NCBI GenBank assembly: GCA_947627685.1
Contig: CANQWZ010000001.1
Coordinates: 1 to 52,198 of the forward strand
Reading direction: 5' to 3'
DNA: 52,198 bases
Source: an uncultured Bacilli bacterium
Lineage (GTDB): Bacteria; Bacillota_I; Bacilli_A; ML615J-28; CAG-313
A program made the translations under genes and the position numbers. Below are positions 21,601-51,481 of the stretch, one piece after another (the first letter of the stretch is position 1; the number at the start of each line of letters is the position of its first letter). The notes beneath the pieces are model-generated. The model was not told where the DNA came from. It made no database searches and saw only the letters and a list, made by a program, of their open reading frames with translations.

Positions 21601-24600
21601 ACCTCTTTACAATAAATATATATTCACTAAATTACCTGCTAATTTAGTTGAACTTGGTGATTTAAGTGAATACACCGTTGCTAATTTAAGCGAAGATATG
21701 CATGCTCTTGCAACAAGTGCTCACGCCGTATTAACAATTAGACGTTTACCTGGTGCATTTAAAGATTATGCAGAAACAGATGAATGTGTTATCCCAGCAC
21801 AAACTATAATTAAATCATTATTCGCATTAAATTATGTACAATTAAAGAAACAAGCAATAGTTAATACAATTAATAATTATCGTCCAAGTCTAAAATTAGG
21901 TAGTCTTGATATTACTAATATTGATACTGCTTTAGATGGTGAAATTATTGCTTCAAAGGCAAAAGATATTCTAACAATCTTAGCTCAAACTGATCTTGGC
22001 GAAAATAGAAGCATTAGCCAATTAGGTAATACTCATCTTATGACATCTGTTATTGATTTATATAATGGTTTACTTGAAACACAATTATATGAAGAAGTAT
22101 CAGTATGGGCATTTAGAGCATTTGCTCAACCTGCTATGGAGGGTATTGAATACTTCGATAAACTTGTATTTACTAATGAAAAAATTCATTTAATTGGTAT
22201 CAAATTAGGTGAAACATTAGATGCTATGCTTGATATGGGCTTCTTCAGTAATGATGGTGTTGATTTCACAAATAAATCTAATACCGATCGTTTATTCGTT
22301 CTTGCAACCGATATATTCGAACCTACGGGAAGCTTCCAAAAGATAATAGATAAATTTAAAGCTAATATGGCTGAATTTGGTATTATTCCACTTTCTTATG
22401 CTAATATTGAAACAAGACCTGAATTAAGTGCTATTAAGAATGCAGCTTCAACCATCGTATCATTTGCTAAAACTTATGCTAATAAAGTTCAAGCTAATCG
22501 TTCAGTTCTTGCTGATAGTACATTCCAAGCTGATTTAACTAATTGCTTTGCTAAATTATTTGAATCTAAACTTGCTGTACAACTTGTAATGCCTATCTTT
22601 AGTGGTTCTTTAAGAATCATGACTAAGGATATCGTTGAACTTAACTTATTAGATGAAGTTACTTATGATGAATTCATGAGTCAATTCTTACCAGATGTAT
22701 ATGATTTAATTGCTGCTGTTGATAAATTAGGTCTATTAAATAGTAAGGTTAAACTTAATGATAGTGATGCTATCTTAAAAGTAGCAGATATCTTAATTCA
22801 TGCTGATTCATTCAAAGATTATACTAGTCAACTTGTTAAATTTGCAATGATTTTTGTAGGCGTTGATGCTAAGAATATTGACTTTGATAAAGTTAACTGG
22901 AATAATGAATATGATTACCTTGATGCTACTTTAGCAGTACTTAAGGAACCATTAAAGAAAGTTAACTTCTCTGATCGTAAGACTTACTTAGGTAGTGAAT
23001 TCTTAAATGCTTTAGCTGATGCTATGCCTGAATTTAAAGATTCTGAACTTATTACTTTAGTAGGTCGTCAATTAGCTGAATTTGTCGCAAATAGAATGGG
23101 TGAAGGTCGTTATGACGTATATGTAAATCATCTATTTGACGCAAGTTATACTGATGAAAAATTAAGAGCTGACTATAATGCATTACCTGATATTTTAAGA
23201 AAAGTAGCTGAATTAGACTTCTTCAACAATAAAGACATTACAAATGATAAATTTGCAATTGTTGCTGACTTACTTGAAGCAATGCTTACTCTTAACTATT
23301 CAAAAGGTATGGAAGTAGAGTTATTAGAAACTTGCTTCAAACATACTGATGTTCTTGATAGTTATGAATTAGACTTCAATGATGTAAAAGATTGGTCTAA
23401 AGAAAGCAAAGCTTTCCCTGAAGTATTACGTAAATTAGCCGCATTAGGTACAATCTCTGACTTCGATGTTGAAAAGAAAGATAATCAAATTAAGTTCCTT
23501 GATTTAGTTGATGCTATGAGCGAATCAGAAATTGGTCGCATCTTATTCCCTCAAGTTTATAAGAGTGATATAGCTCCTAAACTTGGTGAAGATTATGAAG
23601 ACTTAATTGATATTGATACTCTTGATCCAACTGAATGGCGTAGTGAATTTGAAAACTTATTCGAAATCTACAACAAAGAAAAAGCTTTCGAAAAGAAATA
23701 TGGTCCACTTGATGAAGTAGATATGAAGCAACGTGATCCTCAAGTAGACTTTGTAGACTTAGTTAAGACAATGGCTAAATCTAAGACAGGTCAAAAATTA
23801 TTCAAAGATATATATGCTAAACATATTGAAAAACCACTTTATGATCAAGTTAATGATCAATTAGGTACTGAATATCAAGATAACGATCTAATTGATTTAA
23901 CTAAAGATCCAAGTGAATGGGCAAATGAATTTAGTACTTTATTTGAAATCTTCAATAGTGCTCAAGAATTAGGTGATTTAACTAACTTAAGCATAAAAGA
24001 TAAAACTACTCAAGAGAAGTTTATTGACTTAGTTAAGACAATGGCTGGTTCTGATAAAGAAGAAGATAAGAAGAATGGTTCTGAAATGGGTCAAAAGTTA
24101 TTCAAAGATATATATGCTAAACATATCAAGGAACAACTTGAAACACAAATTGAAGAACAAGTAGGTAAGAAGCATACTGATTTAATTGAATTAGGTGCTG
24201 ACTCTACTAAGTGGTATACTGAATTCGAAAACTTATTCGATATTTATAATAGTGTAGAAGACTTAGGTGATCTAGCAAATCTTGACATGAAGAATAAAGA
24301 TATGCAAAACAAATTCGTTGCCTTAGTTGATAAGATGTCAAAAACTAAGCTTGGTCAAACATTATTACCAGATATTTATGAAGAAAAGATCGAAGCAAGA
24401 TTAGGTGAAGATTACGATGGTATCATTAATTTCGAAGATAAAGCTTTCACACCAGATATGTGGGCTAATGAATTTAAAAAATTATTTGGTATCTATGATG
24501 TATTAGTAAAAACTGAGTTTGGTAAAGATACTACTATTACAGAAGCAATTGCTATAATGCAAGGCTTATTCGGTAAGAATAAAGCTGATAAAGCAAATGG

Positions 24601-25114
24601 TATCTTTGCTATAACCAAGAATGCTACAAGCTATGAAACTTGGGTTAAGAAGATGCTTGGCAATAATATCGTTGCTTTACCTAGTGGATCTGAAATCGAT
24701 ACTGAATCAGAACGCAACTGGGAAGATGAAGCATATGCATTAATGGGTATTCTTGATGCTATGCAAGTATTTGCAACTGATGGCGGCTTTGATTATTCAA
24801 AAGCTTACGAAACAACTGATAAAGATGCATTCAAGAATGTATTGATGAACATTAATAGTTGTGTTGCAACACGCGCAAGTATGACAGAATTTATCTATAA
24901 TACTATTCATTTAGAAGGAAATGAAACATTAAAGACTTCTTTAGATACTGCTAGTGAAACAAAAGATTTAATGACAACCTTCTATAGTGATTACGAAAAG
25001 TATGAAACAGATAAGACTTATTATAATGCTTCATTCTGGACTGAAGATAATATTGATGCTTTAGCTACTGTTATTACAGGGTATAATTTATCAAAAGCAT
25101 CTCCAAGACCATAA
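12617..25114 (+). CDS. giant (4165 aa) membrane-anchored acidic repeat protein; CvpA-like N-terminal TM domain; no family recognised for the remainder
   Basis: Uninterrupted ORF with its own promoter and terminator. The first ~230 aa contain four hydrophobic segments (LFALWGFLGGLKRELWCIAVFIVLL.. resembles CvpA) and a K/R-rich loop. The rest is D/E/L/V/K-rich with periodic motifs. Confidence 0.9.
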   Translation: MDFNQILLLAGLGLLLVVVLFALWGFLGGLKRELWCIAVFIVLLVITWAVFGDAATILNAKAGQSIAQLLQLQNSNAVTVWDAVLEFAKANIPNGEALLVEGKETYTLFYGIASTVCHAVGLIVGTIAILIICPIIRLISHFVILIVKAIKKSKAKKKPAVETTDEGEEKRDMVVIQKAKQTEEGVIVKDENEIEKKPAGKRRLWGALAGALKGVFVIILICAPLSGLASILTTFTPETKELVKDAVNGEVKVNVAETDDDPIDMVFEFADAYNDSALGKFANGSSFFFGESFSEKLFDQLFKLKTRNQVIYLSDEIKVFIEAANQLEGNLDFTKVTREQYRAVLETLKDSKLPAELMPVVIEYAYEMQEVKDLLAESGQELKFLNLRYNNWKGDIDLVLDALKEAYDLGIFPVADFNYLTMDPDELKDVTTALGKTEFMHDGYPIAVAVLLHLEQVKAQIGDVEISDLGQLDISKELDTIVEIYRTFQQLGIETFEGFDFDAFVKEVLADDTKLDVVFDMVHSILDLQVARKVAIPVAFGFARTNEKFQELLKNANVTDDFMALETQITLDDLSVYVDAVKVALDLVDFSEFPTIKFDFFHLDPDTLDGVIAKMFDTNVTNKVIPIALKIVLALDAVKNQVGDIFDDVDLDNIIWRNEFETLADIYREFLKLGFESTEDFKVDTIDLIQSLIEDEAKYDAVLQILTLIVDTQLYDRLAVPSMQHFLDKFITDKAYDAFSNIVDLSSITKDEWKEDLATILDSVKLINELKVLDNLNPFDYKALDITSHEGVEKIKKLISNIFKLNILGDDELKTALLVASIKQFGWTSISDDIINGIESWNIDWSNEENVLLQLVDVYENVVNLEEFDIKNLDQVDWVALLDSDEFLNYVVDALETVVESDIVLEVLPGLLDKYLLPRLEGIESVDDETLFKDMFSHLQSEELVNELIKLIDVVRDAVDMHLLGAKSVSDIDFSNTDALKGIISGIFDSKLIQGFEGRIIRILLKVSKVLDIEKDTPLYQELVELDYTGEKEALLAFVDAIAPALKDPNFTILDEDGKFNVNLKFWQENKNAKALLDGFKALLGSYPDNDEASSKLIEALLPSIYDKYVEDKNLIPEDFIAIVDELDIANASGATLTAAIRRLLYVADRVIDLNALALIDNGDMEISTIKAVNAYNDILDALHDIELFRGHEAKVLAWGVNYLAKTLKVEIDEVTDEFNNVEWLAQKEVYKDIINDAATFLRKNNIFTYKDLLAFVTDKKYNTPEFITSSNASDLLDILDKLVDVQVIDAIVPLATKYGINLLNDKATIDLSYVLDFTNAEINHDFHKIIATLHKLVEDANIVEYYNTKFDGEMPLPDEEVVKSLVDDIFELNIVAKADGRLAKVIYDKVMTLPNMDKEFLTFDDFKFFVVDWNSEKEVLKELIGLVYDFAEVNNIETMTSVQRFFKEKWYNEPAILRDETGHIVANAVRVLSNSQIVYNVIVKLYTKGIDTLNDNKQFKLPFDLSYLRSMSAPDLVSDLNVLADILDKVVDFGIMTYLAEGDMRDMDLNLLAEAIEKLAETKIMQQNGKRLFGDLYNYGLTYAENVTHGKFVLSEEQIDMIDYQHEIYVLADVVRSLQGLIDAKNIDYLSDIFDLVDDLRINATYKNKDFYDEATYEALAEVAREVSNLQLLEIAAPQLINHVLKFAEQNKVDLSFIDTDEYTGVMFVEDIRTVLDIAKYGYDFGVIDYIFDKTLYSLEADVLCDMLDYVPELNLVKLYFNKLVYTGVKAGLDALKVDVSVTEEMFADIDARAEVKELQDVVMTLKALLVEKDVITLDNLLDFVKGNYPANNYKSEAFYDVETGTALENILTEVVDLETVKVLLPSLLNYGVDKVTKVDLSFLKDSFTKEQLASDVKNVAKLIVPAIEAELVGVIFGKDINEVELHFDTYHEILDAIKNLNVVAMKYGEFISLGVNEAYKKLNSAERVDASMFSGVVLEDEVAALHNALNSAEELAQTLAVNSVYDVRKVVTDLVQNKGYKDTKYVNKENAHLALDVVDSLLDLETVKVILPGATSHGTEYLYQVKNIDVRFLAEELTGIELVEDVDSIVLTLRDLVDYGMLEFVLLDEAIDLSDITPINDAIDRLAHLNILDGHHAEVVYSVLDKLGIDRTGIDLSDVNLDDEIASVQNILDKAKDVLAKEGLNTLSAIKNLKVDYKKYVKLSDDTYDYIDVFVPLIKALAADQLVEKLVLPVSEKYLAKVDPKYNGLVDIYNIYEDGKQVTSDLVDLADLLVELKNLDFVSFVLHDDNYPYEKTEVVSRIIKLVFNLNYFNVSDTRLNEFIKAIDQFVSADLSSIDATGVDLKADADKFAKMYEYLSVVLLDENFPIKNKNDVKQVKFEAKLFKSGLVQENLVDAMLEFMETTVFDKVGPQLVMLTFPLVEKHAKDYYDVLDLANVDVDMVSHDLTLVQDILKRLDNIDLVKLDETGEYLCQDTNDLINLVIDKMTESQILANHGNDLFDLVMNKYVNGKTIGSAVIPTGTITSTGVDFVKDSKVYKQIVDEVFAYLNNESINTIKEFKDFINDFKTSTATLKEVVVNRILADEKNMETIATIIDLVTQLTMVEVNGLSVMNNIVNPLLPSNIAPAFDFAQYTDQEFADDLKSVAKLLRQMNEFGISAFVRNEDINYDQADLVKKMIDNVVSTNYLRYNLYQFIDFVDELNVLPIKLQDLKTNEFDYKGDALIIGEVYEEMLPFLTSEANPLTNKAAIKDLIVNKHVNISIRQALKENKAAVLNAYDELVEMSALPLLFNEMIDFGRRSVPERYQSVFDAMKLDLSMAEKKADIKATSTILRMVVDLELYTLATQKDYNFAGDVISTLNNKETSMSKIDLINMLVEEVYSLNVLQNRDKFVIGILNALDADTTEVDLSGVDWDNELDQLQVIIKDTLQVLLQYDLVSVQAVKDYILDLRNLKTYNAIVDELKAIWHKVEISLSVDVLDALDASDVFDQIFKPLYNKYIFTKLPANLVELGDLSEYTVANLSEDMHALATSAHAVLTIRRLPGAFKDYAETDECVIPAQTIIKSLFALNYVQLKKQAIVNTINNYRPSLKLGSLDITNIDTALDGEIIASKAKDILTILAQTDLGENRSISQLGNTHLMTSVIDLYNGLLETQLYEEVSVWAFRAFAQPAMEGIEYFDKLVFTNEKIHLIGIKLGETLDAMLDMGFFSNDGVDFTNKSNTDRLFVLATDIFEPTGSFQKIIDKFKANMAEFGIIPLSYANIETRPELSAIKNAASTIVSFAKTYANKVQANRSVLADSTFQADLTNCFAKLFESKLAVQLVMPIFSGSLRIMTKDIVELNLLDEVTYDEFMSQFLPDVYDLIAAVDKLGLLNSKVKLNDSDAILKVADILIHADSFKDYTSQLVKFAMIFVGVDAKNIDFDKVNWNNEYDYLDATLAVLKEPLKKVNFSDRKTYLGSEFLNALADAMPEFKDSELITLVGRQLAEFVANRMGEGRYDVYVNHLFDASYTDEKLRADYNALPDILRKVAELDFFNNKDITNDKFAIVADLLEAMLTLNYSKGMEVELLETCFKHTDVLDSYELDFNDVKDWSKESKAFPEVLRKLAALGTISDFDVEKKDNQIKFLDLVDAMSESEIGRILFPQVYKSDIAPKLGEDYEDLIDIDTLDPTEWRSEFENLFEIYNKEKAFEKKYGPLDEVDMKQRDPQVDFVDLVKTMAKSKTGQKLFKDIYAKHIEKPLYDQVNDQLGTEYQDNDLIDLTKDPSEWANEFSTLFEIFNSAQELGDLTNLSIKDKTTQEKFIDLVKTMAGSDKEEDKKNGSEMGQKLFKDIYAKHIKEQLETQIEEQVGKKHTDLIELGADSTKWYTEFENLFDIYNSVEDLGDLANLDMKNKDMQNKFVALVDKMSKTKLGQTLLPDIYEEKIEARLGEDYDGIINFEDKAFTPDMWANEFKKLFGIYDVLVKTEFGKDTTITEAIAIMQGLFGKNKADKANGIFAITKNATSYETWVKKMLGNNIVALPSGSEIDTESERNWEDEAYALMGILDAMQVFATDGGFDYSKAYETTDKDAFKNVLMNINSCVATRASMTEFIYNTIHLEGNETLKTSLDTASETKDLMTTFYSDYEKYETDKTYYNASFWTEDNIDALATVITGYNLSKASPRP
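16286..21926 (+). repeat. degenerate in-frame repeat modules, about 183-195 aa (549-585 nt) period, inside the giant ORF
   Basis: The register marker D-[W/Y/F/L/A/T]-x-x-E/D-x3-L falls at 16286, 16856, 17429, 17993, 18554, 19103, 19652, 20213, 20777, 21362 and 21926. A second helix with a conserved Pro lies about 70-74 aa later in several units (Pro codons at 16496, 17651, 18215, 18776, 19319). Confidence 0.7.
23492..24520 (+). repeat. four tandem 85-98 aa repeats near the C-terminus of the giant ORF
   Basis: Units start with KFLDLVDAM (23492), DFVDLVKTM (23747), KFIDLVKTM (24017) and KFVALVDKM (24311). Each ends with a D-P/S-x-x-W-x-x-E-F-x-x-L-F-x-I-[YF] motif. Units 2 and 3 share identical DNA runs (gacttagttaagacaatggct; ttattcaaagatatatatgctaaacatat). 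Confidence 0.85.
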
Positions 25115-30524: not shown

Positions 30525-32843
30525 ATGAAAAAATTAAAAGGGTTAGTTATTATAACAATTTTATTAAGTTTTATCATGCTAGGTTTTACATCTACTATTA
30601 AAGATGTAAAAGCTGAAGAATCTAATCTAGTTGCTATGAAAAAACATAATGGTCAAGATTTTACTTATCGTGGCTCAGATGAAAAAGTATATAGATTAGC
30701 AGAATATAATTATCCTACAAGTCAGTTTAGAGCCGTATGGGTTAGTGCTTTTGTAGGTGATATTAGTTCATACAAAAATGAACAAGCTTTTAAGCAAGAA
30801 TTAAATGGTTTACTTGATAATATGGAAAGCTGGGGAATGAATGCTCTTGTTTTCCATGTAAGGACACACAATAATGCCCTTTATAAATCTGAATTAAACC
30901 CACTTGCTTCGTGGTTTAGTAATGTTGATTTCGATACTTTTGATCCTGTTGCTTGGTTAATAGATGAATGTCATGCTCGTGGCATTGAATTTCATGCATG
31001 GCTTAATCCTTACCGAGTGCCTACACCGTCTTCTGGAATTCCATCATACGCGGCAGAACCATTACCAAAAGATAATATTGCGAATAATACTGAATATATT
31101 TTAACAGGAAATAGCAGTATTTTAAATCCTGGTGAACCGGCTGTACGTAATTTTTTAGTTGATACTTGTATGGAACTAATTGAAAATTATGATGTTGATG
31201 CCATTAACTTTGATGATTATTTCTATGTAAATGGTTTAACAGATAAATCCGATGAAGTAACTAGAAGAAAATACAACTTAAAAAATTTATCAGTAGCTGA
31301 TTTTAGAAGAGAAGCAATTGATTTATTTATTGAAGACTTATCTAAACATATTAGAGAATATAATCAGTTAAATAATAAAGCCGTACAACTTGGTATTGCG
31401 CCATCAGGCATATATCGTAATGGTGGTTATGTAAAAGAACCTACATATGATAATAATGGTAATTTAACTAATCCTATTGCTTCAAACACAGCGGGTATGG
31501 AACATTATGGTGGTTATTTATATGCGGACACATTAAACTGGATTAATCACGAATGGATAGACTATATTATGCCTCAACTTTACTGGGCAACCGAACATGA
31601 TGTGGCAAGTTTTGTTGAACTTACCAAATGGTGGAGTTGGGCTGTTAAAAATAAAAAAGTTAATTTCTATGCAGGACTTGGTATATATATGGCTCTATCT
31701 ACAACAGGTAGTGGTCAGTACTGGCAATATAATGACGATGAAATCCAAAGGCAATTATTAAATGCCGGTCAATATAAAGAATTTGGTGGTGCTTGTTTTT
31801 ATAAATATGCATCATTACTTAATACAAGTAATAAAGTTATTAAAAATGCCATTGATTTGATTTCTAATGATTACTGGTCTAAAAGAGTTCCCGCAGCCGT
31901 AAGTAAATATTATGCACCATTAATTGAAGAAGTTGCACCAACAAATGTAATATATGATAGCACAACTAGTAGTATTAAATTTGATGTAGTTGATAATGCA
32001 AGAGGTTATATGATTTATCAAGTGCCAAAAGGTGAGGCTCTTGATAAAAATAATATTAATCATGTATATGAATACACTACTAAAAATAGTATTAGTATCA
32101 CTAATATTGATGATTATAATTATTATGTCGCATCCGTTAATAAAGCCAATGAAACAAGCGAAGTAGTCTTAGTTAATACAAGTCAAAGTTATCAAGAGGC
32201 TTGTCAAGAAATTGATGATTATGTAGCATCCCTAGATTTTAACACCAAAGAAATGACAAAAATTAAAGCGATGGCTGAAGATGCGAAAGGTTCAATTAGC
32301 GCCATGACAAGCCAAGATGCAATTAATAGTGCTATTAATGATTTTATCAGTGAAGTAGTTAATTATCATGAAGGCTTAGAAAGCGCAAGAAGAGGTGCAC
32401 AAACAGCCTTAGAAAATTTAGTTTTAACTAGTTATTCTGATGCTCAAAAAGAAGTTATTGAAGATATTATTTCAGATACTATGAATCAAATAAAAGCAAG
32501 TGCTGATGAAGATGAAATTAATACTTTAAAAAATACTGGTATAGATAGCATTAATGAATATATTACATCTTTAAATGCTTATATTTTGGATGCTAAAACT
32601 ACTTTAAGTAAAAAAGATGCCTCTACCAAAGAAGCTAAAGATTATCTTGATGAAATTACTAAAAAAATAGAGGCTGCCTCATCTAAAGAAGAAATTGATG
32701 AACTTCTTAGTAGTGTAGATAGTAAACTAGCCGAATTTAGTGATAAAAATACTTGCGCAAGTTGTAACAAGCAGACAATTATATATATGTTTTTACTTAC
32801 CGTTTTTACCCCACTAGTTATCTATTTAATTAGAAAGCATTAA
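30525..32843 (+). CDS. glycoside-hydrolase-like GHL10 (DUF187/YngK-type) surface protein with helical stalk repeats and a C-terminal TM anchor
   Basis: Signal peptide. FRAVWVSAF..NALVFHVRTHNNALYKSELNP..HAWLNPYRV core. Fn3-like segment. DUF1542/FIVAR-like helical repeats (..DAINSAINDFISEV.., ..EINTLKNTGIDSINEYI..). Terminal hydrophobic helix plus RKH. Confidence 0.7.
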   Translation: MKKLKGLVIITILLSFIMLGFTSTIKDVKAEESNLVAMKKHNGQDFTYRGSDEKVYRLAEYNYPTSQFRAVWVSAFVGDISSYKNEQAFKQELNGLLDNMESWGMNALVFHVRTHNNALYKSELNPLASWFSNVDFDTFDPVAWLIDECHARGIEFHAWLNPYRVPTPSSGIPSYAAEPLPKDNIANNTEYILTGNSSILNPGEPAVRNFLVDTCMELIENYDVDAINFDDYFYVNGLTDKSDEVTRRKYNLKNLSVADFRREAIDLFIEDLSKHIREYNQLNNKAVQLGIAPSGIYRNGGYVKEPTYDNNGNLTNPIASNTAGMEHYGGYLYADTLNWINHEWIDYIMPQLYWATEHDVASFVELTKWWSWAVKNKKVNFYAGLGIYMALSTTGSGQYWQYNDDEIQRQLLNAGQYKEFGGACFYKYASLLNTSNKVIKNAIDLISNDYWSKRVPAAVSKYYAPLIEEVAPTNVIYDSTTSSIKFDVVDNARGYMIYQVPKGEALDKNNINHVYEYTTKNSISITNIDDYNYYVASVNKANETSEVVLVNTSQSYQEACQEIDDYVASLDFNTKEMTKIKAMAEDAKGSISAMTSQDAINSAINDFISEVVNYHEGLESARRGAQTALENLVLTSYSDAQKEVIEDIISDTMNQIKASADEDEINTLKNTGIDSINEYITSLNAYILDAKTTLSKKDASTKEAKDYLDEITKKIEAASSKEEIDELLSSVDSKLAEFSDKNTCASCNKQTIIYMFLLTVFTPLVIYLIRKH

Positions 32844-43355: not shown

Positions 43356-44298
43356 TGTAGAGTTAAAAAATAATATTATTTTAGCTCCTATGGCAGGTGT
43401 TTCAACTTCGGCATTTCGCAGTATTTGCTTAGAGTATGGGGCAGGACTTGTCTATAGTGAAATGATTAGTGATAAGGGTTTAGGCTATGACAATCAAAAG
43501 ACTTTAAAAATGATTGAAATAAAAGAAGATGAACATCCCATCGCCATGCAACTTTTTGGCAGTGATTATAAATCAATTACTGAGGCAGCTAAAAAACTTA
43601 TATCATTTAGTAAGATTGATATACTCGATGTTAATATGGGTTGCCCCGTAAATAAAGTAGTTAAAAGTGGGGCTGGTGCAGCTTTATTAAAAGATCCCCT
43701 TAAAATATATGATATCATCAAAGCTCTTAAAGATAATATTAATATTCCTGTAACGATTAAAATTAGAGCAGGTTGGGATCATCAAAGCATAAATTGTGAT
43801 AAAGTAGCTTTACTAGCAAGTAAGGCTGGCGTTGATGCTATTACAATTCATGGTAGAACAAGGTCAGATTTATATAATGGTAAAGTTAGTTTAGATTATA
43901 TTAAGCTAGTAAAAGAAGCATCAAGTGTTCCTGTTATTGGTAATGGTGACATTAAAGATTATGAAAGTGCCACCAAAATGTTTTCCGAGGGCGTTGATGG
44001 CATTATGATTGGTAGAGCTGCTATGGGCAACCCCTTTATTTTTAAAGAGTTAAATGCCCTTTTAAATGGTAAAAATTATCTTTTGCCAACTAAAGAAGAA
44101 GTAATCACAACTTTACTTGATCATGCTAAAAGATTAATGCAAGATAAAGGTGAACATATTGCCATGGTTGAAATGCGTTCGCATGCAGGATGGTATTTAC
44201 GTTTGATTCCCCAAACTAAAGTTTACAAAAAAGCAATTGTTAGTATTAAAACATATCAAGAATTAGAAGCTATATGTATGGCTATTTTAAATAATTAA
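43342..44298 (+). CDS. dusB: tRNA-dihydrouridine synthase
   Basis: LAPMAGVSTSAFR, DVNMGCPV, IHGRTR, GNGDI, MIGRAAMGNPFIF. Confidence 0.92.
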   Translation: MKIGNVELKNNIILAPMAGVSTSAFRSICLEYGAGLVYSEMISDKGLGYDNQKTLKMIEIKEDEHPIAMQLFGSDYKSITEAAKKLISFSKIDILDVNMGCPVNKVVKSGAGAALLKDPLKIYDIIKALKDNINIPVTIKIRAGWDHQSINCDKVALLASKAGVDAITIHGRTRSDLYNGKVSLDYIKLVKEASSVPVIGNGDIKDYESATKMFSEGVDGIMIGRAAMGNPFIFKELNALLNGKNYLLPTKEEVITTLLDHAKRLMQDKGEHIAMVEMRSHAGWYLRLIPQTKVYKKAIVSIKTYQELEAICMAILNN

Positions 44299-44345
44299 GA
44301 CTTAAGTTCGTATCTTAAAGACGAATTTAAGTCTTTTTATTTTTA
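44297..44345 (+). terminator. intrinsic terminator of dusB
   Basis: AAGACTTAAGTTCGT / ACGAATTTAAGTCTT stem (one G-U pair), then TTTTATTTTT. Confidence 0.75.
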
Positions 44346-44417
44346 AAAGGCAAAAACTGACAAAATATATAAAAAATAAATGATACAATAGAAAAGAAAA
44401 AACGAAAGGCGAAGAAA

Positions 44418-44915
44418 ATGAAAAGAACACCCAAGCTATTAATCATATCATATATATCCATCATTACCATTATTTTAGGAATATTAATGTGGTATATAGG
44501 TTATTTAAAAAAAGATGTAACAACTAAAAACATTCTTTTACAAGATGACAAAGTAGTTAGTGAGCATCTAGCCATAAAATTAAATAAAATGGTTCCTGGT
44601 GCTAATAAAAATTATACCATTATCTTAAAGGCACCAACTACTAGTAGTTATGAAGTTAATTTAGCTTTTACTAGTATTAATAATTCTATTTTAAGTAAAT
44701 ACATTAATGTTGAAATCAGTTATCAAGATAGTTTAAAAAAGTATCGTTTATGTGATTTAATAGATGACCTAGAACAAATAAACTACTTGTTAAAACTTAA
44801 GAAAGGGGAAAAAGCCAAAATCACAATTAAATATAATTTACCATATGAAGTAGGTAATGAAATTCAAGGTATGTCAATTGATTTTAATGTTAATTTTAAG
44901 GTTAAAAGGTTATAA
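44418..44915 (+). CDS. N-terminally TM-anchored TasA/camelysin-fold-like protein lacking the SipW-type cleavage motif
   Basis: One TM helix (LLIISYISIITIILGILMWYIGY). ..KMVPGANKNYTIILKA.. and C-terminal EVGNEIQGMSIDFNVNFKV resemble the strand motifs of the two downstream TasA-like proteins. Confidence 0.5.
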   Translation: MKRTPKLLIISYISIITIILGILMWYIGYLKKDVTTKNILLQDDKVVSEHLAIKLNKMVPGANKNYTIILKAPTTSSYEVNLAFTSINNSILSKYINVEISYQDSLKKYRLCDLIDDLEQINYLLKLKKGEKAKITIKYNLPYEVGNEIQGMSIDFNVNFKVKRL

Positions 44916-44917
44916 AA

Positions 44918-45634
44918 ATGAAAAAGATTGTTAACATAGTTTTCAGTGTTATAACTTATCTTTTTTTATTAGTAGCAATCGTTTTGTTAATCTTTTCGAT
45001 AATTGCTAAAAAAGAAAGTGATGATGCTATCAATATTTTTAATCATCAAATCAGAGTAGTTGTTTCAAATTCAATGGCTAAAAGTAATAGTGTTGATGTT
45101 AGCGATTATAAGATTAAAGATATTAAAGTAAAAAGTATGGTTTTAATCGAAACGGTACCTAAAGATCTAGCAAAAAAAAGGGAGTGGTATAGTAATTTAA
45201 AAATAGGTGATGTTTTAACTTTTAAATATGTATATGTAAGGCAAGAAACCATAACACATAGAATAGTTAATATTGAAAATAAAGATGATGGTTACCTCAT
45301 TACTTTAGAAGGTGATAATAAAACAGATAATACTACAACTAGCAAACAAATTATTGATACAACTGATGATGATAGTCCCAATTATATAATTGGTAAAGTT
45401 ATTTATAAAAATTATTTAATGGGCATTATATTATATATTTTAAAACAACCCATTGGTCTTGCTTTAATTATTATTGTTCCGTGCCTCATTATTATTATTT
45501 GGCAAATGATTAAAATTATTAGTACCATATATGGTGCTAAGAAAACAAAGCAAGAAGAAAAAATTGCTTCTTTAGAAGAAAAACTTAAGTTATTAGAGGA
45601 AAAACAAAAAGGAAAGGAGGATAAAAATGCCTAA
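44918..45634 (+). CDS. sipW: signal peptidase I, SipW/archaeal (Ser-His) type
   Basis: N-terminal TM, VVVSNSMAKS (catalytic Ser box), ITHRIVNIE (His box), a second TM, and a charged coiled C-tail. Confidence 0.75.
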   Translation: MKKIVNIVFSVITYLFLLVAIVLLIFSIIAKKESDDAINIFNHQIRVVVSNSMAKSNSVDVSDYKIKDIKVKSMVLIETVPKDLAKKREWYSNLKIGDVLTFKYVYVRQETITHRIVNIENKDDGYLITLEGDNKTDNTTTSKQIIDTTDDDSPNYIIGKVIYKNYLMGIILYILKQPIGLALIIIVPCLIIIIWQMIKIISTIYGAKKTKQEEKIASLEEKLKLLEEKQKGKEDKNA

Positions 45635-46244
45635 AAGAAGACAGATAATTTTATTATCATGTATGACAATTATTGTAAGTTTATTATTAATTGTAGCATC
45701 AACCATGGCCCTATTTACTGATGAAGTAAATGTTACTAATCATTTACAAGCAGGAACTTTAAAAATTACTTTAATTAGAGAAAAATTAGTGGCTAAAGTT
45801 CTTGATGATGGCTTATTAATTGACAAAGAAAATCCCGTCGCAAAAGATTTTACCAATAATACGATAGATAATATTTTTGATATAGAAGCAAGTGATAAAC
45901 TAGTCCCCGGTAGCAAATATGAAGCTTTTATGCGCCTAGAAAATAATAGCGATGTAGCTTATGAATACTATTTAGCAATTATCGTAAAAACAACTGATAC
46001 TAATATTGCAAAAGAGCTCAAAGTAACAATCACCAAAGAAGATGATAGCCCTAAGGTTGCATACTTAAATGGAGGCATTACAATTGGTAGTAAAAGTGAA
46101 CCAATTGGTAGAATTACTAAAGGCGGAAAGCAAAAATTTAGTATTGCGGTAGAATTTGCCGCTTTAGCAGATGATGTAAATAATCTTGCGCAAGCAGAAG
46201 ATATTACTTTTGATGTAGTTGTCTATGCTACACAAGCGATATAA
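45627..46244 (+). CDS. TasA/CalY (camelysin, M73-like) family secreted protein with SipW-dependent signal peptide
   Basis: ..LIVASTMALFTDEVNVTNHLQAGTLKITL.. matches the A-x-F-T-D ... G-T-L pattern. VPGSKYEAFMRLEN. C-terminal NNLAQAEDITFDVVVYATQ. Confidence 0.75.
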   Translation: MPKRRQIILLSCMTIIVSLLLIVASTMALFTDEVNVTNHLQAGTLKITLIREKLVAKVLDDGLLIDKENPVAKDFTNNTIDNIFDIEASDKLVPGSKYEAFMRLENNSDVAYEYYLAIIVKTTDTNIAKELKVTITKEDDSPKVAYLNGGITIGSKSEPIGRITKGGKQKFSIAVEFAALADDVNNLAQAEDITFDVVVYATQAI

Positions 46245-46265
46245 AAAAATTAAAAGGAGAGAAAA

Positions 46266-49200
46266 ATGAAAACAACTAAAAAAATTTTATTGGGTTCAAT
46301 TCTAACAATCTTACTTTGTACAAGTATGATTGTAGGAGCAACATATGCCCTATTTACTAGTGAATCAAAAAATAATGTGGCTATTACTTCTGGTAAAGTT
46401 GAAGTAGTCGCAAATGTTGTAAAAGATTCATTAAAATTATATTCAGGTTCTTTTAATGAAGATCTAAATGATTATGAATATGTTGAACAAAGTGGTCATT
46501 TTGTTAATGGTGGCAGTGCATCTTTTAGTGAAGATGAAAAATTACAACTAAATAATATTGCCCCTTTAGATAAAGTAAGTTTTGATATTGCTTTAACTAA
46601 CAATTCAACTATTGCCATTAAATATCAAGTACAATTATTAATTGAAAATGATACCAAATTATTTGGTGCCTTAAAGGTAACACTAGAAGGTTTAAAACTA
46701 GTTAATAATGGTAAAACTAATATTTCTAAGTGGTCAGATTCTGTTATGGCTGGTCAAAAAATTGATAATTTAAAAGTTACTATCGAACTACCTGAGGGTA
46801 TAAAGAATGATTATCAAAATGAAGCATGTGATATTGCGATTGTAGTTTACGCTGTACAAAGTAATGCTCATACAACCAATCCTGTTGAAACAGATTTAGA
46901 AACTGCTAAGGAAGTATATATATATAACGAAGATGAACTAATAGCTTTTAGAGATCAAGTTAATAGTGGTGATAACTTCAAAAATAAAACCGTTTATTTA
47001 ATGAACGATTTAAATTTAGTAAATGTTGCTAATTGGGAACCTATTGCTAAATCAGGTGCGGAATTTAATGGTACTTTTGATGGTAAAGATTTTACCATTT
47101 ATAATTTAACTGTTAATAAAGAAAACGAAGACTGTGCCGGTTTATTTGGCTTTACGACAAGTGCAAAATTCCAAAATATCCGTTTTAGTAATGTTGATTT
47201 AACCTCAAGATATTACGCAGGAGCACTTGGTGGTAATTTATATACTTCTAGTATTGAAAATGTACATGTTGAAAACATTAAAATTCACACTTCACACTGG
47301 CTTGGTGGTATCGTTGGTAGTATGTATGGTAATATCACCAATTGTACAGTTAAAGCCTTAGAAGGCGTATGTTTACCTAATAAACCAGATGGCGCAAGTT
47401 ATGATAATGGTGATAAAGCCGGTGGTATTATCGGTCAATTACAAGATAGTGGTAGATATAAAATTGAAAACTGTAAAGTAGAAGATTCAACTATTAGTGC
47501 ATATCGTGATTTAGGTGGTTTAGTAGGATGTGGAACAGGTAGTGCTAAAACTTATAAAAATAATGTTATCAAAAACGTCACTTTAACTATTGATCGCACT
47601 AACGATTATGGTAATAAAGAATTTAATGTAGGTGCTGTAGTAGGACGTAATGATAGTAGTTATAATCAAGATGATGTTTTCGAAAAAAATGAAGAAGAAA
47701 ATGTAACTATTAACTATGTAAATTGTGACTTTGCGAAAAACCATGATGAATGGATTGTATCAAGTGCTAAAACACTTAAGACTTTTGCTAGTTTAGTTAA
47801 TAGTGGTACTACTTTTGATAGAGAAAAAGTAAACCTTGCAACAAACATCGATTTAGAAAATGAAGTTTTTGTACCAATTGGTAATTCAGAGCATCCTTTT
47901 AAAGGTAGTTTTGATGGTAAAATGCATACCATTTATAATTTGGTAATATCAGGAAGTTACGCGGAAAACGGCTGGACTACTAAAGAAAACTATGGTCTAT
48001 TTGGTGCTACAAATGGTGCTACAATTAGTAATTTGACGGTTGAAAATGCTAATTTAAGTGCTCTTTCAGACAGTTCAAGTGTAGGAGTTGTAGTAGGTGG
48101 AGCCCATGTTAGTAAACTTGATAACGTTAATATTAAAGGTCATGTTTTAGTAAGTGGTACAAGTTATGTAGGTGGTATTGTTGGAAAAGCATATTGCAAT
48201 ATGGAAAGTTGCCATGCGGACGTTGATGAGACAAGTTTAGTAACAGTTAATTATCAATATGGTGGCGGTATCATTGGTTTTAATGGTGAAGGTAGTTATA
48301 CAATTAGCAATTGTTCTAGTAATATGAATCTTTTAGCAACACCTCTTGGTTATTCGGGTATTGGTGGTATCATCGGTTGTGTTCAATATGGTACAGTAGT
48401 TGATAGTTGTACAGTATTTGATATAACAATCACGATTTCACGCATCTTTAATGAAGAAAAAGATAATGAAGATAATAGTGGTGTTGGTAGTATTGCGGGA
48501 AGATATACGCATAAAGATGGTGACCCCGTTAAAGTAACAATTCAAAATTGTACCGGAAAAGCCACCATTGATAGTAATTGTGTATATCATCATAATGGCT
48601 TAGTTGGTGTCCAAAAAGGCTATAAAGAAGGCACCATTAATGAACCAGGTAATTTAGTCTTAAAAAATAATACTGTAATAGGTGTTTGGAATAAAGTTAG
48701 ATATGATGAAAACGGTAAATTTTATGTTGATGATAGCACATCTTTAGTTGCTTTTAGTGAAGCTACTAATAAAGGCTATTTCAAAAAAGGTGAAGGAAGA
48801 GCCTTAAATGTTTTCATAACAAAAGATATCAATATGCAAAGTGTTGAATCATTTATGCCAATAAGTGCCCAATGGGTTAATTTAGATGGTCAAAATCATA
48901 CCATTTCTAATTTAACTTGTGGCATGGAAACAACTGGCAAAAGTGGCCTTTTTGGGTATGGCGGCGCTGCTGTTATTAAAGATTTAACACTAGAAAATGT
49001 TACTTGCAAGGGTTCACAAGCAGGAGCTTTTATGGGTCATAGTGCCGATGGTGGTGTTTTAGAAAACTGTGCTTTAAAAGGTAGCATCAATATTATTTAT
49101 GAACAAACTAGTGAAACTTATGGTGGTGTGGGAGCCTTTGTTGGTGTAAGTAGTACTGGTAATGATTATCCAAAACCAAGCTTTACGGATCTTAAAATTT

Positions 49201-49361
49201 TAGAAGGTTGCACAGTTAAACTAGTTACAACCGGCCTTGAAAGCTTATGTATGGGTACATCAAAAGAAGGTCTTCTTGGAAATATCGTAGATAACACAGC
49301 TCAACCTGCTGATGAAAATATTACTACTTATGAAGGTTTTAAAGCAGAACTTGTAGCATAA
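46266..49361 (+). CDS. large secreted protein: SipW-type signal plus TasA-like N-domain fused to three GLUG-motif beta-helix modules
   Basis: ..IVGATYALFTSESKNNVAITSGKVEV.. and NDYQNEACDIAIVVYAVQ form the TasA-like domain (aa ~1-200). Three modules each start ..F.G.FDG..HTI.NL and carry repeated GLFG/GG(I/L)VG motifs. Confidence 0.75.
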   Translation: MKTTKKILLGSILTILLCTSMIVGATYALFTSESKNNVAITSGKVEVVANVVKDSLKLYSGSFNEDLNDYEYVEQSGHFVNGGSASFSEDEKLQLNNIAPLDKVSFDIALTNNSTIAIKYQVQLLIENDTKLFGALKVTLEGLKLVNNGKTNISKWSDSVMAGQKIDNLKVTIELPEGIKNDYQNEACDIAIVVYAVQSNAHTTNPVETDLETAKEVYIYNEDELIAFRDQVNSGDNFKNKTVYLMNDLNLVNVANWEPIAKSGAEFNGTFDGKDFTIYNLTVNKENEDCAGLFGFTTSAKFQNIRFSNVDLTSRYYAGALGGNLYTSSIENVHVENIKIHTSHWLGGIVGSMYGNITNCTVKALEGVCLPNKPDGASYDNGDKAGGIIGQLQDSGRYKIENCKVEDSTISAYRDLGGLVGCGTGSAKTYKNNVIKNVTLTIDRTNDYGNKEFNVGAVVGRNDSSYNQDDVFEKNEEENVTINYVNCDFAKNHDEWIVSSAKTLKTFASLVNSGTTFDREKVNLATNIDLENEVFVPIGNSEHPFKGSFDGKMHTIYNLVISGSYAENGWTTKENYGLFGATNGATISNLTVENANLSALSDSSSVGVVVGGAHVSKLDNVNIKGHVLVSGTSYVGGIVGKAYCNMESCHADVDETSLVTVNYQYGGGIIGFNGEGSYTISNCSSNMNLLATPLGYSGIGGIIGCVQYGTVVDSCTVFDITITISRIFNEEKDNEDNSGVGSIAGRYTHKDGDPVKVTIQNCTGKATIDSNCVYHHNGLVGVQKGYKEGTINEPGNLVLKNNTVIGVWNKVRYDENGKFYVDDSTSLVAFSEATNKGYFKKGEGRALNVFITKDINMQSVESFMPISAQWVNLDGQNHTISNLTCGMETTGKSGLFGYGGAAVIKDLTLENVTCKGSQAGAFMGHSADGGVLENCALKGSINIIYEQTSETYGGVGAFVGVSSTGNDYPKPSFTDLKILEGCTVKLVTTGLESLCMGTSKEGLLGNIVDNTAQPADENITTYEGFKAELVA

Positions 49362-49368
49362 AAATAAA

Positions 49369-49402
49369 AATAATAACTCTTAAAAACTTTTAAGAGTTAT
49401 TA
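49369..49402. terminator. bidirectional terminator
   Basis: TAATAACTCTTAAAA / TTTTAAGAGTTATTA long AT-rich hairpin between convergent genes. Confidence 0.65.
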
Positions 49403-51304
49403 TTTTTTAGTAGATTCTAGTTTATTTTGATCATTATTTAGAATGGCATCTACTAAAACATTTAATATTTTATTAGCCGGGATATCTTTATAATTATCAA
49501 TGTGAAGACCATATTTTTTTATTATTTTATCTAAATGACTAGTATTTTCTTTTCTTACTATTTTCTTAAGCTTGTTAGTGGGGTTTTTAGCATAACTATT
49601 AATAAAGCCAGCTTGATGGGAATCAAAATCATAATTTGCTACGATAAATAAGCAATTAATTAAATAAATTTTACGATCTTTATTATCTAAAAAAAAGGGC
49701 TTTTGAAAAATCATATTAAAGAAATTTTGAATACTTTGATGAGCATGATTAAAGTTTTTTAAATAAACTAAACTCATAGGATATTTTATCAAATGTTCTG
49801 ATAATATACCACCTTGTTCAAAACCAACATAACCTTTAGAAGAACCTATTAAATTATTTAACATAGTCATATCATGATAATTTGCCAAATCAATTTCTAA
49901 ATACATCTCATGTTTAAAACCAAAAACCTTAGTTAAATCTGCCATTAAATCATTACTATTAAAGTCATTTTCGACTAAAATTAAGCCCATATTATTAAGA
50001 GTGGGGTTTAATTCATAACGCTTTATAAAAGTTAGATAGTTAGCCTTTAGCATAGGATAATTAAGCTTTAAAGCCTTCAAATTTTTGAGCGATATCTTTT
50101 TAATACCAGTAGTATCTTCAATAACTTCATCAATTAATTTATCAACGCTTTTATGACAAGTTTTATGCCTTGCGCCAACCTCATCTAAAATATCAATGGC
50201 TTTATCGGGGAAATTTTTATTAACTAAGTAGAATTTAGCATCTTGAATTATTTTCTTTAAATTATTTTTACTATATTTAATTTGATGATACTCTTCATAA
50301 CTTGCTTTAATACCTTCTAAGATTTTATATGTTTCATATTCATTAGGTTCATCAATATAAACATTTTGAAATCTTCTAGTTAAGGCTTTATCTTTTTCAA
50401 TAAAACGATAATACTCATCTAAAGTAGTAGAACCAATTAGTTTAATATCGGATCTTGAAAGGTAAGGTTTTAAAATATTAGCAATATCTAAAGAGCCATC
50501 ATTGGATCCTGCCCCAACAATATTATGAATTTCATCAATAAAAATAATGGCCTTTTCTTTTTTTACATATTCCATAGCTTTAGTAATTTTTTCTTCAAGT
50601 TCACCTCGATATTTAGTACCTGATACGATACTACCTAAATCAAGTTGATAAATGGTTTCATCTTTTAATATTTCTGATAAGCCTTCAATAATGGCGGTTT
50701 TTCCTACCCCCGCATTTCCTACTAGTAAGGGATTATTCTTTTGTTTTTTAGATAAAATATAGATAATTTTTTCAATATAATTACTACGTTTAATGAAAGG
50801 ATGAACTTTTTTTGCTTTAGATAAGTTAGTTAGAAAAGGATAAGGCACAGTGGTAGTGTTTTCTTTATCTTCAAAAAAATTAAAGATTTCTTCAATATCA
50901 ATCATTAAATCTTCTTTATCTAAACCTAATTTTTCAATAATGATGCTTGCTACACTATCTTCCTCTTTTAACATGACATAAAAGATATGTTCATCATAGA
51001 CGTATTTACTGCCTAAATCTTTAGCTAAAGTTTCTGAAAATAAAATAATTTCTTGAAATTTCATACTATAAGTAAGATTTTTATTATCACTTTTGCGAAA
51101 AATAACTAGATTATTAATAATATTTAAAATATCATCATAAGTAATATTTTTTTCTTCAAGTAAAAAATGACAAATAGTATCTTTCTTTTTATACATTGCA
51201 AGTAACAAATGCTCGCTGCCAACAAGTTTTTTATTCAAGCTTTTAGCAATTTGTAAAGCTTCATCAATGATTTCAAGTGCATTTGTACTGAAAGTTTCAA
51301 ACAT
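49400..51304 (-). CDS. ClpC/ClpB-like Hsp100 protein: Clp_N repeats, intact AAA+ D1, degenerate D2
   Basis: Clp_N (LVGSEHLLLAM). D1 Walker A GNAGVGKT, Walker B IIFIDEIH, RRFQ. D2-like region keeps GYVGFEQGG but has ENDFNSND in place of GPTGVGKT and YLKNFN in place of LLDEIE. ATG 51304 lies 5 nt after SD GAGGAGG. Confidence 0.8.
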   Translation of the reverse strand: MFETFSTNALEIIDEALQIAKSLNKKLVGSEHLLLAMYKKKDTICHFLLEEKNITYDDILNIINNLVIFRKSDNKNLTYSMKFQEIILFSETLAKDLGSKYVYDEHIFYVMLKEEDSVASIIIEKLGLDKEDLMIDIEEIFNFFEDKENTTTVPYPFLTNLSKAKKVHPFIKRSNYIEKIIYILSKKQKNNPLLVGNAGVGKTAIIEGLSEILKDETIYQLDLGSIVSGTKYRGELEEKITKAMEYVKKEKAIIFIDEIHNIVGAGSNDGSLDIANILKPYLSRSDIKLIGSTTLDEYYRFIEKDKALTRRFQNVYIDEPNEYETYKILEGIKASYEEYHQIKYSKNNLKKIIQDAKFYLVNKNFPDKAIDILDEVGARHKTCHKSVDKLIDEVIEDTTGIKKISLKNLKALKLNYPMLKANYLTFIKRYELNPTLNNMGLILVENDFNSNDLMADLTKVFGFKHEMYLEIDLANYHDMTMLNNLIGSSKGYVGFEQGGILSEHLIKYPMSLVYLKNFNHAHQSIQNFFNMIFQKPFFLDNKDRKIYLINCLFIVANYDFDSHQAGFINSYAKNPTNKLKKIVRKENTSHLDKIIKKYGLHIDNYKDIPANKILNVLVDAILNNDQNKLESTKK

Positions 51305-51481
51305 GTATTCCTCCTCATAATTCAATTACGTACACGCTATTATATGCAAAGATTTAAAAAGATAGACGATTTATCAATTAGTTTAGATGTTGTTATTATG
51401 ATGATTTTTGGCAAATAATTAATTAGGTTTTATCAAAACATTTTAGAAAAAAAATAACTTTAAGTAAGAATATCAAACAAA

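Follow-up and report, generated by a model that had tools for sequence, protein, structure and literature searches.

We propose that an operon in the genome of an uncultured gut Bacilli bacterium encodes a TasA-type surface fibre whose export depends on Sec and on a SipW-like signal peptidase, and we consider it probable that three of its products take distinct parts in this fibre: one as the shaft, one as an adhesin subunit, and one as the membrane anchor. The operon occupies positions 44418-49361 of a stretch of 52,198 nucleotides (contig CANQWZ010000001.1, assembly GCA_947627685.1; the whole stretch is called the window here). It consists of four co-directional open reading frames on the forward strand, which we call h (44418-44915, 165 residues), S (44918-45634, 238 residues), T (45627-46244, 205 residues), and F (46266-49361, 1031 residues). 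T would be the shaft subunit, F the adhesin subunit, and h the anchor; S would be the signal peptidase. The genes are tightly packed, with a gap of 2 nucleotides between h and S, an overlap of 8 nucleotides between S and T, and a gap of 21 nucleotides between T and F; ribosome-binding sites of the AAAGG/GGAGG type lie 5' of the operon genes, and two strong hairpins bound the four frames. A preliminary description of this DNA had reported four packed or overlapping genes behind the terminator of a dus gene, and the reading frames agree with it. This gene order is met again in dozens of independent genomes; chance falls far short of accounting for the arrangement.

Sequence profiles support the placement of T and the F N-terminal domain (46266-46865, forward strand; residues 1 to ~200) in the TasA superfamily. 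This domain comprises a signal peptide, a conserved segment (ALFTSESKNNVAITSGKV) that is a candidate donor strand, and a TasA-like beta-sandwich, which AlphaFold2 models with a predicted local distance difference test score (pLDDT) of 87.1. The paralogy of T with the first ~200 residues of F extends along the full length of both (hhalign 99.3%, expectation value (E) 1.8e-20). Aligned to full-length B. subtilis TasA (a sequence whose residues 28-261 are identical to the 8aur chain), the F N-domain reaches 95.6% and the T profile, built from 51 sequences, 94.8%. Searched against the PDB, the F N-domain profile (35 sequences) finds as its best two matches the TasA entries 8aur (E 5.6e-5) and 5of1 (E 3.4e-4), by way of two strands, PGDK...NN and the C-terminal N-x-YQ...A-x-Q-x-N. 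T-family profiles of 4 and of 51 sequences do not find TasA in the PDB; the signal peptide, in which much of the resemblance resides, is missing from PDB chains.

The motifs named in the preliminary description are present as described. The ..ALFTDE.. of T, the ..ALFTSE.. of F, and the C-terminal strand motif N-x-x-Q...A-x-Q that T and F have in common align between the two proteins and with QNKYQGNSIKLQFSFEATQWN of TasA, and the F motif GATYALFTSE is collinear with TasA GGTWAAFND. The family models that the same description had put forward as a check give a divided answer. Against TIGR04088, the model of the SipW-dependent signal (cut-off 19 bits), T scores 26.4 bits and passes, and F scores 13.4 bits and does not. 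Against Pfam Peptidase_M73 (PF12389, IPR022121; gathering threshold 22.5 bits), T reaches 15.8 bits and falls short, and h gives no match; F residues 1-215 scanned alone reach 24.8 bits and pass, through residues 5-50 only, and the family is not listed when full-length F is scanned against Pfam.

What could join such subunits to one another? The signal peptide of T ends at ..STMA, ahead of LFTD, and is followed by a conserved NHLQAGTL segment that is a candidate donor strand. In F, conservation within the N-domain peaks at the corresponding residues 24-46 (..GATYALFTSESKNNVAITSGKV), at 0.79 versus 0.48 for the domain; similarly, residues 24-48 of T are more conserved than its folded domain (0.64 versus 0.49). 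Asn37 of F, which lies within this donor-like segment, is conserved at the level of at least 80%. BsaA-type 'exchange-and-lock' subunits use an intermolecular Asn-Glu-Lys isopeptide triad. In the AlphaFold2 monomer model F residues ~31-46 are unstructured and have low pLDDT. The best-conserved stretch of T and F is thus the stretch that is unstructured in the monomer model, which hints at donor-strand assembly. In the alignment to TasA the segment is collinear with the N-terminal strand by which one TasA subunit complements the next (PMC9674648, PMC10151520), and the donor strand of BsaA is likewise disordered in monomer models (PMC11580942, section 8).

Beyond its N-terminal domain, F is predicted to form a GLUG-type beta-helix, as had been suspected. 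The whole protein scores 65.3 bits against Pfam Glug (PF07581, cut-off 20.5 bits), and the AlphaFold2 model of full-length F (pLDDT 85.2, predicted template modelling score (pTM) 0.73; module 1 mostly above 90 in pLDDT) resolves three modules, each made of a strand and a cap helix (residues 222-233, 501-512, and 824-835) followed by stacked short strands. The cap helices map to 46.93, 47.77, and 48.74 kilobases (kb), in agreement with the earlier placement of three modules near 46.9, 47.7, and 48.7 kb. All three modules lie on the forward strand. Module 1 (46911-47741, residues ~216-492) is a cap helix followed by a right-handed GLUG beta-helix, and module 2 (47748-48707, residues ~495-814) is a cap helix followed by a GLUG-type beta-helix; scanned singly they score 44.6 and 34.2 bits against Glug. 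Module 3 (48720-49235, residues ~819-990) is a shorter, divergent copy and reaches 12.6 bits, under the cut-off. The three modules are paralogues: BLASTP relates module 1 to module 2 (E 9e-17), module 1 to module 3 (E 2e-11), and module 2 to module 3 (E 2e-6). The tail, residues 996-1025, is modelled with low confidence.

The closest structural matches of this beta-helix are domains found in immunoglobulin A1 (IgA1) proteases and in BACOVA_03286. Foldseek returns 3n6z (BACOVA_03286; E 2.5e-5, TMt 0.56), 6xja (E 6e-4), and 7uvk (E 1.2e-3), and below these, more weakly, right-handed beta-helices of a generic kind, lyases and tailspikes among them. A sequence search of the PDB with F residues 201-1031 gives no match, and the relation to IgA1 proteases is seen at the level of the fold only. 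In Pfam, the match of F to Peptidase_M26_N is confined to the final ~70 positions of that model, and module 1 scores 25.2 bits against this C-terminal piece, under the cut-off of 27.7 bits. F was also scanned for HExxH, for LPxTG, and for a second membrane helix, none of which is present. An M26 IgA1 protease function for F was accordingly rejected, since the protein has neither HExxH nor a catalytic domain.

The product of h is a third, truncated relative. It has an N-terminal membrane helix (residues ~7-27) that appears to stay uncleaved and is not followed by an ALFT motif, and a core of the TasA superfamily at residues ~51-162. The h family aligns with the F N-domain at 97.1% and with the T family at 97.8% (hhalign), over the C-terminal ~100 residues only, and it reaches TasA only through T and F. 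The previous reading of h as a TasA-like protein held by a membrane helix thus stands in its helix and in its kinship with T and F; a significant match to TasA itself was not obtained. The ALFT motif occurs in 0 of 41 h-family members, a hydrophobic N-terminus in 39 of the 41, and the segment after the helix is the least conserved part of the protein (0.28). The public gene call for h is a 142-residue product that begins at Met24 and lacks the membrane helix; we favour the longer start because the hydrophobic N-terminus is conserved in orthologues. The h-family profile matches neither TapA nor any other chain in the PDB. A TapA-like identity for h was set aside on account of this result, the poor conservation of the post-helix segment, and the lack of a cleavage motif.

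S is a divergent SipW-like signal peptidase I of the endoplasmic reticulum (ER)/archaeal type with two membrane helices, judged by its profile matches, and is not a SipW equivalog. It matches NCBIfam SipW NF046067 over nearly its full length (E 7e-14, 51.8 bits; curated cut-off 190 bits) and TIGR02228, the archaeal-type signal peptidase I (E 2.7e-10, 40.3 bits; cut-off 51.85 bits), and both scores are significant yet under the curated cut-offs. The motifs VVSNSM, ITHRI, and GDN and the N- and C-terminal hydrophobic helices are invariant in three orthologues, as are Ser50 and Ser52, His114, and Asp133; the His region aligns weakly with human SEC11A. We take Ser52, His114, and Asp133 to be the candidate catalytic residues, by analogy with published work on SipW and Sec11. 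The Ser-His signal peptidase of the preliminary description is therefore retained as to type, on a nearly full-length match and conserved Ser, His, and Asp motifs, and stops short of equivalog status.

How widely is this set of genes conserved? A search with F yields 977 homologues; among the 120 listed, 97 are homologous along the entire N-domain, and many carry precomputed PF12389 along with Glug, M26_N, Beta_helix, or LRR_5. Word-indexed homologue searches gave only 4 proteins for T and 2 for h, and an exhaustive profile search was needed to recover 1748 relatives of T, of which 313 reach E<=1e-30; almost all have lengths of 200-240 residues. A genome scan limited to one genome per species gave 241 loci, of which 78 were kept; all of these are from metagenome-assembled genomes (MAGs) of gut Firmicutes, among them Clostridia, Christensenellaceae, Oscillospiraceae, Lachnospiraceae, Candidatus Scatosoma, and uncultured Bacilli. 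Some MAG labels are implausible, namely Bacteroidaceae (loci L011, L057, L071), Parasutterella (L024, L072), Acidiphilium (L030, L040), and Staphylococcaceae (L013, L014, L034); such labels on Firmicutes-type cassettes or F loci are likely to be errors of binning or labelling and not a real distribution. The nearest relative, from a rabbit-gut 'uncultured Bacilli' MAG, has an F of 73% identity and full synteny, dus-h-S-T-F-clpC.

With locus reading frames classed by profiles of h, S, T, and the F N-domain, the order h-S-T-F with 1-5 copies of F is found in 36 of 80 loci, and a further 6 have S-T-F; the remaining loci include several rearranged versions and 28 with F alone. F genes stand directly 3' of T in 42 of the 80. 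Simple cassettes hold one h and one T each and a variable number of F genes. Orphan F genes, with 8 kb upstream that hold no h, S, or T, occur in L012, L013, L034, L049, L058, and L080 (F at ~8001), and one MAG, CAZRBI, contains one cassette (L039) together with at least two orphan F genes (L012, L080). The C-terminal regions of F vary: 69 of 96 link to the window modules by similarity clustering, and other heads are pectate-lyase-like, PMP-repeat, or BspA-LRR, or have no Pfam match. A crude GLUG regular expression under-counts such proteins, with both motifs missed in 66 of 109 related F proteins.

Many Clostridia cassettes also contain an extra membrane-protein gene between S and T, which is absent from the window and from its two nearest relatives. 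Its product has an N-terminal membrane helix, a conserved domain of ~150 residues, and a basic tail, and falls into two subtypes, one with a ribosomal-uL15-like C-terminal motif. Examples are L016 6530-7243, L068 6042-6758, L043 4710-5417, L081 3735-4400, L033 6695-7273, and L008 4313-4864.

We propose that T and F are exported by way of their SipW-dependent signal peptides and that S would cut them between the Ala and the LFT of the ..ALFT.. motif, freeing a conserved N-terminal segment that lies outside the subunit's own fold. As happens with TasA in B. subtilis and BsaA in C. perfringens, the freed segment may then complete the beta-sandwich of an adjacent subunit by entering it as a donor strand. 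T, of which there is always one gene only, would be the major subunit that makes up the shaft. F, with the same polymerization domain joined to ~830 residues of a non-catalytic GLUG beta-helix, would be an adhesin-like binding subunit displayed on the fibre, and the one to five alternative F genes per cassette in relatives, together with the orphan copies elsewhere, would supply variants of it. Finally, h, an acceptor core that has neither the cleavage motif nor a conserved donor segment, would be retained in the membrane and hold the fibre at the cell; it may also terminate the fibre, as it could accept a strand and could not donate one. This three-role model fits because simple cassettes hold one h, one T, and a variable number of F genes, and it is consistent with growth from the base at the membrane, which has been proposed for BsaA (PMC11580942, Discussion).

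The closest precedents are two. In B. subtilis tapA-sipW-tasA the order of accessory gene, signal peptidase, and major subunit is the same as in h-S-T (PMC10151520), a comparison that the preliminary description had suggested. TasA and T/F have in common the signal and donor form T-[WY]-A-x-F...SG-x-[LV]-[DE]-[LV] as well as the PGDK...NN and C-terminal N-x-YQ...A-x-Q-x-N strands. However, the central helical region of TasA (8AUR, 5OF1) is absent here and the F N-domain has an insertion of its own at residues ~52-87; h is a membrane-anchored paralogue of the subunits, whereas TapA is an immunoglobulin-type protein with a conserved N-terminal donor; one subunit here is fused to a beta-helix of ~830 residues; and the scores of the present proteins lie near or under the curated cut-offs. 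The C. perfringens sipW-bsaA-bsaB-bsaC locus combines, as this one does, sipW, several TasA-like paralogues, and a large putative binding protein (PMC11580942), and heteropolymers of several TasA/BsaA paralogues from one operon have already been proposed (PMC11580942, section 14). There, however, BsaC, which has a VWA domain, is a separate polypeptide, whereas F carries its binding-type domain in covalent fusion with the TasA-like one; and unlike the bsa system, the present one includes a membrane-anchored truncated paralogue, h.

Two further comparisons concern F. With the M26 IgA1 proteases of S. pneumoniae (6XJA) and G. haemolysans (7UVK) and with BACOVA_03286 (3N6Z) it has in common Glug, the C-terminal end of M26_N, and the predicted fold; unlike the proteases, it has no protease domain or HExxH, is built of three tandem modules that each bear a cap helix, and begins with a TasA-like region and not with an LPXTG or G5 region. 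Chaperone-usher pili, with the PapG adhesin fused to a pilin domain, the PapA shaft, and the PapH terminator, offer a functional analogy only to F, T, and h. The likeness would lie in an adhesin fused to a polymerization domain, a single shaft subunit, and a non-donating anchor or terminator; unlike those pili, the present system has no usher or chaperone, a different evolutionary origin, and an envelope of the Gram-positive type.

Several results weigh against the fibre with three roles. At 115 kDa, an F subunit might be too bulky to occupy every fibre position. The direct alignment of h with TasA (hhalign 33.6%) is not significant, and S is far short of the SipW equivalog cut-off, at 51.8 versus 190 bits. 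The similarity of these proteins to TasA in M73 and hhalign comes mostly from the signal peptide, the donor region, and the two strand motifs, and the central region of TasA has no counterpart in them. Searched against the PDB with Foldseek, the F N-domain model gives nothing at E<=1e-3 and leaves TasA outside the top 50, the top matches being the CLIPPER adhesin domain, the PapG pilin domain (E 3.5e-2), and a CBM2. Because Foldseek did not retrieve TasA, fold identity with it rests on the sequence profiles, and to this extent the TasA-like character claimed earlier for T and the F N-domain stands by profile and is not independently confirmed by structural search. The same generic beta-sandwich matches favour another account of the operon, which we regard as unlikely: that F is an independent secreted or surface protein whose N-domain is only a non-polymerizing stalk or export module, that T alone forms fibres, and that h is an unrelated accessory or regulatory membrane protein. 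The orphan F genes far from any h, S, or T agree with such independence, as does the N-domain of F, which forms a clade apart from T by profile scores (A2 versus A1). Yet no part of F is better conserved than its donor-like segment, although this lies outside the protein's own fold; F has no other anchoring device and directly follows T in about half of the loci; and the paralogy of h with T and F is clear.

Granting that F is part of a fibre, its head might act on a substrate and not bind one. On this account, which we think has only a slim chance of being right, the beta-helix is a displayed or released enzyme, such as a polysaccharide lyase, a hydrolase, or a tailspike-like depolymerase. 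Foldseek does list a fucoidan lyase, polygalacturonases, alginate epimerases, and phage tailspikes below the IgA1-protease matches, and module 1 contains the conserved charged motifs YDNGDKxGGIxG and YRDxGGxVG. These enzyme-type matches are weak, however (E above 1e-3, probability 0.1-0.6, template modelling (TM) score at most 0.3), whereas the significant ones are GLUG beta-helix domains, which in IgA1 proteases lie outside the catalytic part; the columns that hardly vary hold Gly and hydrophobic residues typical of beta-helix rungs, and no Pfam catalytic family is detected in F. The role of h can be questioned in turn, since it sits in the position of tapA, as the first gene and just before sipW, and TapA, which associates with the membrane, donates its N-terminus to start TasA filaments (PMC10151520). 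If h acted in this way, its post-helix segment would be donated to the first T or F subunit and would initiate the fibre rather than terminate it. This we judge quite improbable: the post-helix segment is the least conserved part of h, whereas the donor segments of T and F are their best-conserved parts, the h-family profile finds no TapA, and h keeps the strand motifs of an acceptor core.

A bolder form of the fibre with shaft, adhesin, and anchor can be put forward tentatively, and we think it rather doubtful in its entirety. The h-S-T-F cassette may represent a distinct Gram-positive pilus that grows from its base by donor-strand exchange of the TasA type, free of sortase and usher. Interchangeable F subunits with fused adhesins, encoded in the cassette and as orphans and bearing varied heads, would enter first and so be displayed, T would form the shaft, and the uncleavable h would take the last strand and, like PapH, terminate as well as anchor the fibre. 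Uncultured gut Clostridia and Bacilli might then possess in such a pilus a major adhesion apparatus that has so far gone unrecognised.

The borders of the operon are marked by the two hairpins. On the 5' side, a hairpin followed by a T-run (TTTTTATTTTT; 44297-44335, forward strand) has a 15-bp stem and a predicted energy of -16.8 kcal/mol (z -4.62, 0 of 200 shuffles as stable) and is likely the terminator of the upstream dus gene, whose product matches Pfam Dus at 286 bits. On the 3' side, an A/U-rich perfect hairpin with A- and T-runs on its flanks (49366-49407, not assigned to a strand; -17.9 kcal/mol, z -6.52) is likely a bidirectional terminator shared by F and a convergent clpC-like gene. 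A consensus terminator and promoter scanner reported no terminator at the operon and missed both strong hairpins, because its G+C and loop rules are ill-suited to a genome of ~29% G+C. An extended -10-like element, TGATACAAT (TGaTACAAT), is present at 44381-44389 on the forward strand where a promoter had been proposed, as a consensus match only; the nearest -35-like hexamer, CTGACA at 44357-44362, is 21 nucleotides away from TACAAT, and the scanner listed only a weaker pairing of CTGACA with AATGAT.

The convergent gene (49400-51325, reverse strand) encodes a protein with Clp_N, AAA, AAA_lid_9, and AAA_2 domains that is only 641 residues long; a typical ClpC has ~810. Elsewhere in the window, on the forward strand, are an open reading frame of 4165 residues (12617-25114) in which no Pfam family is found at E<=1e-5, a GHL10 (glycosyl-hydrolase-like 10) protein of 772 residues (30525-32843), and a HAAS/toastrack (DUF4097) protein of 658 residues (375-2351).

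Finally, TasA-type fibres are known mainly as scaffolds of the Bacillus biofilm matrix and more recently from C. perfringens. The TasA/BsaA family, SipW-linked operons with several paralogues, and the idea of heteropolymers (PMC11580942) are already known, and the combination of M73 with GLUG is present in databases, unnamed. Our literature searches on GLUG, SipW-dependent, or camelysin fusions found no description of a TasA-like module fused to a beta-helix head, and likewise none of a membrane-anchored truncated paralogue or of a conserved h-S-T-F(n) cassette with orphan F genes. If the proposal is correct, SipW/TasA systems would not only build matrix but also serve in modular adhesin display, and would in function be the equivalent of sortase and chaperone-usher pili. 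The variable heads of the F family would in that case amount to a catalogue of candidate binding specificities, and the cassette would offer a handle on how uncultured gut anaerobes attach to their hosts, to food particles, or to each other.

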